From Octopus vulgaris (taxonomy: Eukaryota), in contig OX597821.1 in assembly GCA_951406725.2 (NCBI GenBank), forward strand, positions 67,890,001 through 67,954,000: a stretch of DNA of 64,000 bases. The letters run 5' to 3'. This document shows, piece by piece, positions 656-49,165 of the stretch. Below the pieces are notes generated by a model that had not been told where the DNA came from, did not search any database, and saw nothing but the letters and a program-made list of their open reading frames with translations. Numbering within the stretch: the first letter of the stretch is position 1; each line of letters opens with the position of its first letter. Made by a program: the position numbers and the translations under genes.

Positions 656-830
656 ACACATATGCATATATATATACATATATATATATATATATATATA
701 TATATATATATATATATATATATATATATTGGTAACAACGGTAAGATAACAAAAGAAAGAAAGAGACCTCAATATTATGTAAATAGAGGAAAATTATCTA
801 TAAAATAATGTTACAATTACTCAATAGTCA

Positions 831-893
831 AGATAAAACTCTGAGTTTCAGATGCCGAAGTGGAAATCCACAACACCATCTCTTCGGTTATCT
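831..893 (-). ncRNA. type-I hammerhead ribozyme-like motif (U4C core variant), minus-strand copy
   Basis: Reverse complement of the motif at 1719-1781. Confidence 0.6.
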
Positions 894-1718
894 GGCCATC
901 TGAAAGAACGCTATGAAAAAATACCGTTATATAAAGGGAAATTACTGTGTTATAATTATATAAAATAAGATTAAAATTTCATAGTAAAACACGTAAAACA
1001 TGGCTAGTCATACGCTTACATGTGTGCTCGCGAATCCACGTTCGTATTTATACGTCACTATGAAAACGTACACATCTTCACTCGCATTTTTCGCCAAATA
1101 TATACGCATATATATACAAACTCGTACACACACACATGCGTACCGTAAAAGTTCATACATACGTCTATATACGCACAAGCACAAGAAAAACCATGGTTAA
1201 AGGTAACATAAAAAAAAAACATAAGGAAGCATAAAAACAACGTTCATATACGGACATACCCTTATGCACTCATACACAGACATGCCCTTATATGTACATA
1301 CCCGCACATGTTTATATATGCATACACACACACGCATATACAAAAAATTAATATACATATGCCCCCACCAAAAAAAACCCTAAAAAAATGGAAAAATACT
1401 AAGTAAAAACGTCTATATATATATTTGCATTTTTATGCCCGCACACACGCACATATCTAAACTTTACGGTACGCATGTGTGTGTGTATGAGTTTGTATAT
1501 ATATGCGTATATATTTGGCGAAAAATGCGAGTGAAGATGTGTACGTTTTCATAGTGACGTATAAATACGAACGTGGATTCGCGAGCGCACATGTAAGCGT
1601 ATGACTAGCCATGTTTTACGTGTTTTACTATGAAATTTTAATCTTATTTTATATAATTATAACACAGTAATTTCCCTTTATATAACGGTATTTTTTCATA
1701 GCGTTCTTTCAGATGGCC

Positions 1719-1781
1719 AGATAACCGAAGAGATGGTGTTGTGGATTTCCACTTCGGCATCTGAAACTCAGAGTTTTATCT
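1719..1781 (+). ncRNA. type-I hammerhead ribozyme-like motif (U4C core variant)
   Basis: Stem I AGATAA/TTATCT; core CCGAAGA (1725-1731); stem II GATG/CATC plus one extra T; GAAA (1763-1766); quasi-palindromic CTCAGAG; then TT as the UH site. Confidence 0.6.
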
Positions 1782-1977
1782 TGACTATTGAGTAATTGTA
1801 ACATATTATTTTATATATATATATATATATATATATATATATATATATATATATAACACGGTTGAAGCTACATGCCAAGGGCAGAAATCACGTGCTTTCG
1901 TGTGGGAATTTGTGTGTTTTTTTACTATAAATAAATGAAAGAATGGAGTCGAACGACGATTTAACAAAATTCCTTTA

Positions 1978-45440: not shown

Positions 45441-46952
45441 TAGAGAAAAGAAAGTTAGGAAAAGAAAGATGGCCGATGGTCGCGTGAGAGCCACGAGAGA
45501 GCAAAGGAGGACAAGTGAGGGAGAGTCCTAACTCGCGTTTCTTTCTTTCTGATTCAGCTGGACGAATCAGATGCATTCTTTTCTGTGTCTTATCCAAGCT
45601 TGCTTCTTTGCATTCACCACCTCACCTCGTTTAGGCTTAACAGCCCTTCCTGTTTGTTTTCACTGTCCTGTTTTTGTTACCAATTTTGACCCTCCGCAAA
45701 ATCCCAAATTTTCTTTAATTTGCTTTGCGGGAGCAACTGTTTTATCGAAGGCATATCTTGTCGTAGAATTGCTCGGAATACGGATTAGAAAAACAGCCGA
45801 CAACTGATGAAGGGTAGTTCATTATGTTATTTGTCTTGCTTTCCATTTTTCTTTCGTTGTTGCAAAAAAAAGTTCATATTCCATGTATTCGTAATCTATA
45901 TCTCATGTTTTCGTTTTTTTATGTTCTTTACGTTCCGTGACATTATGAACCCACATATGCCTATGTATATACGTATAGATGTAAGTATGTACATATACGT
46001 ATATATATATGCATATATATATATATATATATATATCATTTATGATATGGATACTCTTGCGGCGGAGTATATGAAACAGGGACAACTGAAGAAGGGGAAT
46101 ATTCTTTATGTTGTATGTCTCGCTTTTTTGTATTTTTTTTTTTTTGTTTCTATGCTTTTGTTTTTAGGTTTTAGGTTTTGTATTCAATGTTTTTTCGATG
46201 CCCTGTACCTATATATGTATGTATATATACACATATATGTAGGTATGTACATATATGTATGTATATATGCATATATTTGTATATTATTTATATTATTGTT
46301 TATAATATATGATTGAACGCCACGTATCCTTTTCCAAGTAAGTATACGTCTTCCTGTAGATACATTTGTGTTTTTATACACTTATGTGATTACGTACGTA
46401 AATTGTGTATACGTCTGCTTTTCTGTACGCATTAATGAATAGAGTGTTCTGTGTGTGTTTCTGCTATTGCGAAGCCAAATCTCTGACTGGCTTTCCAAGT
46501 CAGACGACCTTTAAGCGATTAGATTTACAGCAAGCAGATTGCTTCTCTGTCTAGTCATATCAGACACGACTTATTTCCGCTATATATATGATAATTGGAC
46601 AGCACAAGATGCAGCACATAATACAACTATCTCTATAAAAACAATAATTATGTTTTTAGCTTTAATGCGGTTTGAAGATACACACACGCACGCACACACA
46701 CACACACACACACACACACACACACACACACACACACACACACACACACACACACACACACACACACGCACGCACGCACGCACGCACACACACGTGTGTG
46801 TGTGTGTGTATATGTATGCATATCCTAGATAAATATATTATATATAGAGAGAGAGAGGGAGAGAGATATTGATATATTACATCATATTGTATGGTGTATA
46901 TGTGTGTGTTTGCATGCTTGCGTGTGTGTGTGTTTTGTGTGTGTTAGAGTGT

Positions 46953-47200
46953 GGAGGGGCATGGGTCAGTGGTTAGGGTATAGGACTCATGATCGTAAGA
47001 TTACAGTTTCGATTCCTGAACCGGGCGATGTGTTGTGTTCTTGAGCAAAACATTGAATTTCATGTTGCTCCCGTCCACTCAACTGGCAACAATGAGGACT
47101 CCTGCAACGGACCAGCACCACCTACGTTGGAAGAATTTATGCACCACAGAATCCAGGAAACTGCCTTTATGAGCCTATGACTCATGGAGGACCTGTTACG
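46953..47200 (+). mobile_element. SINE family D
   Basis: ggaggggcatgggtcagtggttagggtataggactcatgatcgtaagattacagtttcgattcc...tgtgttcttgagcaaaaca. Confidence 0.75.
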
Positions 47201-48995
47201 CTTTTGTGTGAGTGTGTGCCTGTGTGTGCCTGTGTACGTGTGTGTGTTTACGTAAATATAGTTGGAATGCCGTTTGAATAAGTTGTTTGTATATTTGTTT
47301 CTGTTCTGTAATAAGTAATCCAGAATGCAAAGTATATTGTGCGATCCCTTTATATGTCAACTGAAGCAGCTTCACTTAATCTAAGTGAATGTCTTTTCCA
47401 GAGCACCTCCGGCATGAACAGTCTCAGAAGTTTCATATATGACGGACGAAAGGCAAGGCGCTAGTACACATGTGCTTCACAGACTAGGTCTAATAAAAGT
47501 TTACCCTTTAGTCTCTTGACTGCCCATAGAATTTTCATGTTTGCCCTAAAGGTCCATGCATGTTTTTAGACTTTTTATTAGCTTTTGCTTCATACATTCT
47601 AAGAGATAGAAAGCTTTCCTATCACAAATCCCAACTTACTCTTGTGATAGAGAACTATTGCAAATAACCCGACTCCGTTGGTCACGAATGACCATGGGTG
47701 CATCTAAGGTCTTGGTGGAAAGTCCCCTCACCGGCGAACGCACAAGCTATGGTTGTTTTATGGAAGACCAGCAGTCGCCCATGCATACCAGCCTCCTCTC
47801 TCCACGCCACCGATGTTATCCAAGGGAAAGGCAATGGCCGATATAGTTCGGCACCAGAGACATCGCAACTCATTTCTATAGCTGAGTGAAAACAATTGGA
47901 AATACGTACATAAATGATACATGAACAAGCGAACGGTTAATAAGTAAGATGCAATCAGCTGAAAGATTATATAATATAGTATGCGACAGGGTCATTATTT
48001 ATAGTCTGTGAGCAAAATGGATTTCAGCCACCGTTCATTCTTAGTTCACTAAAGGCGTCGACAAAAATCTGTTGTGTGCGTGACTGTTTGCATGTACTTA
48101 TAGCTCTATTATAGTGTTGTGCTACAGGAATAAAGGCCAATAATATCAATCTTATAGCATCCACGTTTGCATACATAATCTACGCTGAATGAAAATGCAA
48201 CAACTTGATCACTCGTTCAGCTGCAAGCAATTTGGTTGGAAAAAAAGAGCTTTCTCCCTTTTTATTTTGGTTTCTTTTTAGTCGCCATCTTCATATGTAC
48301 TTGTCGAAAATAATGTTATAGATGTGTAAATTGTCTTTCTCATTTCCGCCTTCTCTGTTTGTTGCTGGTTTGTTGCTCTATCAGTTATTTATGAATAGGT
48401 ATTTCACAGCCTACATTCGTAAATACACATGTTGCGATAACACGGATATTAAGATTATTCCTTTAATTAAGGACTAAGCTTATTTTTGTAGAGATAAACT
48501 TTTTATTTAGGAATTAGCTAACGTTATCGCACAAATTACAGCTAACAGTGCGATGGTCTCTGTTCCGAATCGGAGAACCTACTGTATGTACACATCTGTG
48601 CATGTATGTGTGTGTGTGTGTGTGTGTGTGTCAAAGAGGGAGGAATGGAGGATTGCAGTTGTGTGTATCTCCACATAACGCCAAATGCATTCTGGACCAA
48701 AGACATACACTTACATCGCAGTTTTAAGCAAGAACGCAATTGGCGTTATAGGCACAGCAAAGCACTGCAACAAAAGACTTAAATTTGTATCATTCTACTA
48801 CTGGGACTCAGCGATACATAAGTACAAATATTCGTTTCCCCCATTTTGACATATATACACATACATACAAACATACATACATACATACATACATACATAC
48901 ATACATACATACATACATACATACATACATACATACATACATACATGCGTACATACACATATATATATATATATATATATATATATATATATATT

Positions 48996-49165
48996 TGTAA
49001 ATATAATGTGACAGTTATTCGGCGTGGATTTCCGTCCCGCCATCCGAAACTCAGAGTTTTATCATGGCTACCGAATAATTGTCACATATTATATTTACAG
49101 ATAAATTCCTCTATTTAATATCGAGGTATCTTTCATTCTTTTGTTGTCTTACCAGTTCTATCAAT
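48996..49165 (+). mobile_element. short copy of the 731-1816 PLE family with small 5' inversion and 3' half of the hammerhead
   Basis: catccGAAActcagagTTttatc at 49041-49063. 48996-49022 is the inverse of 49071-49099, and the tail matches the reverse complement of 740-830. Confidence 0.7.

Follow-up and report, generated by a model that had tools for sequence, protein, structure and literature searches.

What are the hammerhead-like ribozyme motifs that recur along a 64-kb stretch of the Octopus vulgaris genome (GenBank assembly GCA_951406725.2, contig OX597821.1, forward-strand positions 67,890,001 to 67,954,000; hereafter the window, with positions counted from its first letter), and do they constitute a system of their own? 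A preliminary description had listed ten such motifs and read them as separate non-coding, self-cleaving modules mobilized by Penelope-like elements (PLEs). Analysis of the window, which belongs to a 2.8-Gb genome and is rich in microsatellites and transposon debris, and of related loci elsewhere in that genome (cited below by L numbers) indicates that the scattered motifs are, with very high probability, the 5'-truncated and often folded-back ends of PLEs themselves, a piece of biology in print since 2014. In one family, here termed C, the terminal repeat bearing the hammerhead is headed by a tRNA-like module. The overall explanation that we favor on sequence grounds, if by a modest degree, combines hammerheads residing in PLE terminal repeats with a family C repeat headed by a likely internal RNA polymerase III (Pol III) promoter for the whole element.

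Hammerhead motifs in truncated PLE ends

All ten motifs were located at the positions and on the strands given for them. A relaxed type-I hammerhead descriptor, run on 80 systematically spaced 10-kb stretches of the genome and on three shuffles, yielded 47 matches in the former against 3, 10 and 3 in the latter, so that the class as a whole lies far above chance; further hammerhead families were also among these matches. Within the window the descriptor is passed by five of the listed motifs (831-893, 1719-1781, 14429-14474, 40060-40139 and 40308-40387), while the other five are damaged or partial; core damage affects about half of the copies in the window, and 49041-49063 is a half motif only. 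A sixth match, at 24548 inside a tandem repeat, was absent from the original list. No hammerhead family was among the 150 of 296 Rfam matches listed for the window, which are dominated by microsatellite-driven microRNA models. Six sequence groups underlie the motifs (A, B1, B2, C, D and E), which belong to high-copy repeats; D is old and decayed and was found at one locus in the sample.

A census of the cores was made over about 30 loci per family, those of B2 and C being picked by likeness to the window copy. It recovered the CUGANGA core of a minimal type-I hammerhead in 22 of 28 loci of B1, 30 of 30 of B2 and 28 of 30 of C, and related families display compensatory changes in their stems. 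The G5A change of the window motif at 1978-2058 is private to that copy, the 22 B1 loci having CUGAUGA. Families A and E depart from the canonical core as families: A has U4C in 29 of 30 loci plus an extra base before GAAA, and in E, among 28 cores located in 30 upstream-anchored loci, A6 never occurs and U6 occurs in 26. U4C and A6C are natural variants of low activity (PMC3088659; here and below the literature is cited for the passages available). Relatives of family E that keep A6, with the core CCGACGA, CUGACGA or CUGAAGA and compensatory stem I changes, exist at L277, L298, L320, L331, L344 and L311, and could serve as controls for the A6U family. In family E copies such as those at L267, L308, L313, L327 and L337 the 5' ends cluster about 90 nt upstream of GAAA and may mark an RNA polymerase II (Pol II) start within the repeat. 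A different hammerhead family, with a U3-A8 core variant, was encountered in L315 (about 8280-9100, minus strand, with a 362-bp direct tandem) and also in L310, L318 and L342.

The derivation from PLEs put forward in the preliminary description is borne out for A, B1, B2, C and E, each of which is tied to upstream open reading frames (ORFs) for a reverse transcriptase (RT) and/or a GIY-YIG endonuclease (EN); for family D, a translated search of its 30 loci returned no parent ORF. The GIY-type ORF of the window's B1 copy (2638-3072) has at least 150 close relatives, and near-full-length B1 copies unite an RT with a C-terminal endonuclease in frames of 804 and 833 amino acids, as judged by eye from their motifs; these frames gave no significant Pfam match to RT or GIY domains, though look-alike proteins carry RVT_1, and the B1 protein had no match in the PDB. 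One such copy, at L181, has the order inverted pseudo-long terminal repeat (pLTR), pLTR, ORF, pLTR. In L185 an RT-thumb/GIY-YIG frame lies upstream of the group A sequence, as does a GIY frame upstream of B2 in L189, and family E sequences follow fragments of RT, Zn-linker and GIY regions. The ORFs are partial in all three. Thus, the elements display the features of endonuclease-bearing (EN+) PLEs: RT and C-terminal GIY-YIG in one ORF (B1 and C), pLTRs, partial tandems (L438 and L440), inverted truncated copies and an optional tail. Inverted 5'-truncated copies, tails and (TA)n targets are known from PLEs in general (PMC8557442).

The earlier view that several elements carry a ribozyme motif on each strand can now be given a simpler form. 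The motifs at 1719-1781 and 831-893, and likewise the paired motifs of B2, sit in the two arms of nearly perfect inverted repeats (355 nt, 98% identity, and 221 nt, 99% identity, respectively), so that one ribozyme has been duplicated by inversion rather than two being present; among random family C loci both strands are represented in 7 of 17. The fold predicted for the locus at 39,990-40,460 is a single duplex of -394 kcal/mol in which the motif is buried. Cutting of host pre-mRNA at such inverted loci is therefore disfavored, as a read-through RNA would be predicted to form one long duplex hiding the motif. The minimal hammerheads published for metazoans occur singly at dispersed sites or in pairs, 100-700 bp apart and on opposite strands, and derive from truncated PLEs (Cervera and de la Pena 2014, PMC4209133). 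The window conforms to this pattern, and minimal type-I hammerheads in 5'-truncated, often inverted PLE ends, as also anticipated earlier, are supported. The additional idea of separate non-coding modules is not upheld, since the copies are truncated autonomous elements of that published kind and, in family C, no diagnostic variant sets short copies apart from ORF-linked ones.

The density given earlier, about one locus per 10 kb, holds for the window (7 loci in 64 kb) but not genome-wide, where the sample contains 44 loci per 800 kb, or 1 per 18 kb (A 6, B 7, C 17, D 1, E 13), these groups having been selected because they are present in the window; the window is about twice the average, a difference that is not significant (Poisson P about 0.07). 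Extrapolation gives about 150,000 loci for the six groups, with about 60,000 short copies of family C and about 45,000 copies of family E. Such abundance might be taken to favor a functional system in which dispersed modules act on host pre-mRNA or yield retrozyme-like RNAs, as might a family C-derived tandem array of 5.9 x 188 bp and the few copies that start at the predicted cleavage site (L408, L436, L287 and L440). We nevertheless consider this proposal very improbable: the paired motifs are inverted duplicates that form duplexes, many copies are damaged, the window holds no tandem locus, and minimal PLE hammerheads are reported to be inactive as monomers (PMC4209133) and dependent on protein (PMC11167929). 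In 2 of 40 matches anchored on the 3' end, and in 1 of the 17 family C loci of the random sample, the copy begins at the predicted cut site, which hints weakly that cleaved RNA may now and then be copied.

The family C terminal repeat

In the window, family C is represented by a folded-back insertion that is flanked by 13-bp target-site duplications and has a tail on just one of its arms. At L100, L392 and L436 this 26-nt tail runs on, in frame, into the ORF start encoding a PLE-type N-terminus, and an ATG lies upstream of the hammerhead; the hammerhead is therefore situated within the coding start, and the module and spacer preceding it constitute the 5' untranslated region (UTR). Hence the remark that no ORF accounts for the motifs is correct for the window alone, as in family C the motif occupies the first codons of the parent ORF. 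Longer copies share the order ORF stop, about 25 nt, A/B-box tRNA-like module, (TAA)n, ATG, hammerhead in the coding start, tail and ORF, and two 3' ends occur, with and without the tail. The window copy breaks off short of the module, which is why the preliminary description could not include it.

The module is 74 nt long, with boxes A and B spaced 45 nt apart. Of 30 ORF-anchored loci, one being the query itself, 29 have the module, recognized by its box A or box B region, about 25 nt behind the stop codon. A hammerhead body lies within 500 nt of it in 27 of 30 module-anchored loci, the other three having different sequence beyond the spacer. Among 30 decayed copies box A is exact in 15 and box B in 19. 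Against the genome's own tRNA genes (35 distinct sequences from 30 loci, none of them Ile) the module is closest to tRNA-Arg, with z about 8 relative to shuffles; it may also resemble tRNA-Ile(AAT). RNase P-type processing of the module is disfavored, as its predicted fold is not a cloverleaf.

The family C protein matches RVT_1 (E=3e-11) and has a GIY-type C-terminus. Its motifs suggest that the family may belong to the Penelope/Poseidon clade. In L402 no CxxC linker is visible between the RT and EN regions, whereas A and E have one. The Penelope/Poseidon clade is described as being without a Zn-finger-like RT-EN linker (PMC8557442).

In the unbiased sample about nine out of ten family C loci are without ORF sequence. 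Short and ORF-linked copies nevertheless trace to one master, with 5.8-7.1% divergence and no diagnostic variant, the sole differing column being a variant selected by the query; a separate short interspersed element (SINE) lineage is accordingly not shown. Thus, the short copies possess the tRNA-related head with boxes of a tRNA-derived SINE but do not form an independent non-autonomous lineage, and family C is best described as an autonomous PLE, probably Pol III-driven to judge from its sequence, that sheds about 60,000 SINE-like short copies. Two other assignments were rejected. A free-standing tRNA SINE with a PLE tail fails because the module belongs to an ORF-bearing element, and the 3' UTR of a Dong/R4 long interspersed element (LINE), suggested by L102 and L191, fails because Dong ends in its own (TAA)n and sits within the family C (TAA)n spacer. 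Dong/R4-type LINEs adjoin or interrupt this spacer at L102, L112, L191, L227 and L421, where it seems to act as a landing pad; L191 comprises two long Dong ORFs in tandem.

A candidate Pol III promoter and its alternatives

Two kinds of evidence bear on transcription from the module. The first is the distribution of 5' ends, tallied by hand over 40 matches anchored on the 3' end only and including the window copy: 16 end at -2 to +9 of the module start, 4 run past it, 18 end inside or downstream of the module and 2 could not be scored. Hence, of the 20 copies extending at least as far as the module start, 16 have their end at -2 to +9, against a background expectation of 4%; in the unbiased sample family C depth likewise falls from 12 loci at +30 to 2 at -10. 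The second is the scarcity of runs of four T (T4) on the sense strand, scanned over about 2.2 kb in total. The 50 pieces on 1,603 nt of the ORF share no T4 run and hold only 9 private ones, while B1 has about 10 shared runs; the ORF-start pieces of family C also share none. Moreover, 43 of 48 segments from the module to the 3' end are T4-free; by comparison, there are 6-24 such runs in each of the 3' UTRs of A, B1, B2 and E.

These observations have to be weighed against the possibility that Pol II drives every family, as in an ordinary PLE, and that family C is no exception. The tRNA-like piece would then be a passenger (an old tRNA or SINE fragment captured in the pLTR), and the pile-up would reflect a Pol II start or a palindrome at that spot. 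Known PLE promoters do lie in the pLTR (PMC8557442), and some family C junctions are perfect fold-backs at a palindrome. Yet many of the pile-up junctions are non-palindromic, the 5' ends match tRNA position 1, both boxes are intact in family C, and T4 loss is specific to it, being absent from A, B1 and two Dong/R4 LINEs of equal or lower T content. We therefore regard the passenger alternative as unlikely, though still a serious competitor.

Several further results weigh against Pol III transcription of family C. Family E 5' ends cluster without any tRNA module (6 of 16 at -86 to -93), so 5'-end pile-ups need no Pol III, and the short palindrome at the module start could itself favor fold-back. 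The test of T4 absence is a modest one: control codon usage gives P=0.013, but P is 0.14 when the codon usage of the element, which is itself T-poor, is applied. About 500 nt of the ORF fall outside the scan, and its most upstream 300 nt come from 2 copies. Two raw RNA-seq runs from a related organism, of a library type poorly suited to the question, show nothing special: reads fall on both strands, there are no discrete ends, and the ratio of module to ORF is not above that of copy number. ARAGORN recognized a tRNA in 0 of 18 module loci and Rfam gave no tRNA match, which is as expected for a degenerate tRNA head; the predicted module fold, too, is no cloverleaf. No intact full-length family C copy was retrieved, the three loci with an ORF start being partial tandems, and a Pol III RNA would need cap-independent translation. 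Taken by itself, the Pol III step seems to us evenly balanced.

An intermediate possibility is that Pol III makes only short module-plus-hammerhead RNAs of about 250 nt from solo repeats, which would then be a PLE-dependent SINE, the ORF being expressed through Pol II or by read-through. The short unit indeed has the promoter boxes, the hammerhead, the priming region and no internal terminator, and the prevalence of loci without ORF sequence would suit it. This scheme, however, does not explain why the ORF is T4-free, and the short and ORF-linked copies show no difference in age; we consider it improbable, if less so than the functional system discussed above.

Returning to the reading with a promoter for the whole element, and going beyond the observed structure, we infer the following as to polymerase, priming and cleavage. 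Pol III would start at the module and read through the T-run-free ORF into the next repeat. By analogy with the Poseidon element of the anole (PMC11167929), the RT/GIY-YIG protein would nick AT-rich DNA on both strands, and reverse transcription would be primed at two internal positions of the RNA, both a short way downstream of the hammerhead. When primed in the 5' repeat, it would have only about 250 nt to cover before the RNA 5' end and might so generate many short SINE-like copies ending at the start site, while two priming events would produce inverted arms. The hammerhead may cleave weakly, as a dimer or with help from protein; its cut site lies inside the coding start, and cleavage would therefore separate use of the RNA as template from translation, not cut host RNAs. 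In its fullest form, which we offer tentatively as falling a little short of even, a captured tRNA gene would have replaced the Pol II promoter of family C, Pol III terminators would have been purged from the whole frame, the uncapped RNA would be translated, and the repeat would be a SINE-like unit seeding retrozyme arrays, linking PLEs, SM-alpha-type SINEs and retrozymes.

A tRNA-like module ahead of a protein gene is, credibly, an arrangement for which we found no description in a protein-coding retrotransposon. R2 elements combine Pol I with a ribozyme. If family C is Pol III-driven it would offer a parallel to them, and its transcript would be one of the rare natural cases in which Pol III makes a protein-coding RNA several kilobases long. 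The transcription and translation of PLEs, and the origin of hammerhead-bearing SINEs and retrozymes, would then become directly testable. The model also offers a general reason for the many solo PLE hammerheads, namely that reverse transcription begins about 250 nt from the RNA 5' end, and the roughly 45,000 copies of family E, with their fixed A6U core, provide a test case for whether cleavage matters to PLE spread.

The window in detail and comparison with known systems

Hammerhead-bearing features of the 64-kb window, in order of position
Feature	Positions	Strand	Remarks
Family A PLE 3' end, long arm and tail (about 731-794), hammerhead-like motif 831-893	731..1461	-	Family-wide U4C core, extra nucleotide before GAAA; parent ORF (RT thumb and GIY-YIG) in L185
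Short arm of family A (inverted duplicate) with motif 1719-1781 and (TA)n end	1463..1817	+	
Family B1 5'-truncated PLE: GIY-YIG ORF end 2638-3072, 3' UTR, hammerhead 1978-2058 (private G5A), tail	1855..3077	-	
Family C insertion, left 13-bp target-site duplication	14269..14281	+	
Family C inverted arm, 26-nt tail 14283-14308; hammerhead 14371-14411 without stem I 5' strand, lost at inversion junction	14283..14411	-	
Family C forward arm, corresponding to the first codons of the parent ORF, with an intact minimal type-I hammerhead at 14429-14474; truncation excludes the tRNA-like module	14409..14525	+	
Family C insertion, right 13-bp target-site duplication	14526..14538	+	
Family D old repeat, decayed hammerhead 32441-32517; parent ORF not found	32436..32640	+	73-79% identity between copies
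Family B2 inverted arm, hammerhead 40060-40139	39997..40217	-	
Family B2 forward arm and tail, hammerhead 40308-40387	40230..40600	+	Parent GIY-YIG ORF in L189
Family E PLE 3' end, hammerhead-like motif 43014-43049	42920..43118	-	Family-wide A6U; this copy also mutated at C3 and G5 (private)
Family A subfamily fragment: short inverted piece, hammerhead 3' half 49041-49063, tail	48995..49155	+	

The remainder of the window contains remnants of other mobile elements. A dispersed repeat of about 235 bp is present in three copies of 91-96% identity (12447-12682, 43127-43364 and 53450-53682), one of which directly adjoins the family E copy. A decayed LINE at 56685-59161 on the minus strand retains an RT domain (RVT_1, E=1e-22) and is unrelated to the hammerhead elements, and DDE transposase remnants (DDE_1; mariner-type Transposase_1; HTH_48) lie at 49681-50535 (minus), 45047-45358 (plus) and 6920-7231 (minus). 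At 28539-30361 and 24094-24661 lie complex blocks of AT-rich sequence and 10-bp minisatellites whose symmetry is partly inverted; they are possibly remnants of foldback-type DNA transposons.

Our literature search, in which most papers were judged by their listing, returned no account of a PLE with a tRNA-derived promoter, and the available passages of two cephalopod repeat papers (PMC13282606 and PMC8967140) make no mention of one; the family may be catalogued in Repbase or Dfam as a SINE or a Penelope. Its nearest counterparts are SM-alpha, Helenus/Cassandra and the non-LTR retrozymes, which are compared with it below. The metazoan PLE hammerheads of PMC4209133 resemble those described here: the type-I core has a bulge after A9, stem II is long and the minimal stem III is palindromic, and truncated PLEs leave them either singly dispersed or as pairs on opposite strands. 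Family C matches the consensus line of that paper. The available passages, however, do not mention a tRNA-like module, nor do the variants given there include the fixed A6U of family E or the U4C with an extra nucleotide before GAAA of family A.

Non-LTR (long terminal repeat) retrozymes (PMC7229834; bioRxiv 10.64898/2026.07.22.740005) likewise comprise short type-I hammerhead repeats with a proposed origin in PLE pLTRs, but the window loci are single or inverted rather than tandem, and are pieces of autonomous elements. No array of the retrozyme type (units of 150-400 nt with a hammerhead) was among the 150 of 152 tandem repeats listed for the window; such arrays were found only at L225 and, in an unrelated family, at L315. 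The L225 array (358-1477; G000:C30), in which family C units of spacer, hammerhead and tail stand behind one tRNA-like module, is similar to those of retrozymes and looks like a retrozyme-type derivative of the PLE repeat.

In the schistosome SM-alpha and Sj-alpha elements (PMC6765202) a short repeat likewise joins a type-I hammerhead to a preceding Pol III promoter, which in family C would be the tRNA-like module. These elements are non-coding and mostly tandem, whereas the family C unit is the terminal repeat of an ORF-bearing PLE with tails and fold-backs. The TRIMp3 elements Cassandra, Helenus and Ajax (PMC10886601) also have a small-RNA-derived Pol III promoter sequence within the terminal repeat; they are, however, non-autonomous LTR retrotransposons with a primer-binding site and polypurine tract, while family C is a PLE with its own ORF. 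Comparable in organization is the Poseidon element of Anolis carolinensis, PAc (Frangieh et al. 2024, PMC11167929), in which the hammerhead overlaps the ORF start as in family C, two RT start sites within the ORF start define the optional tail, targets are AT-rich and both strands are cleaved. The passages available on PAc describe no tRNA-derived promoter, and to this shared plan family C adds the A/B-box module, the (TAA)n spacer before the ATG and a T4-free sense strand.

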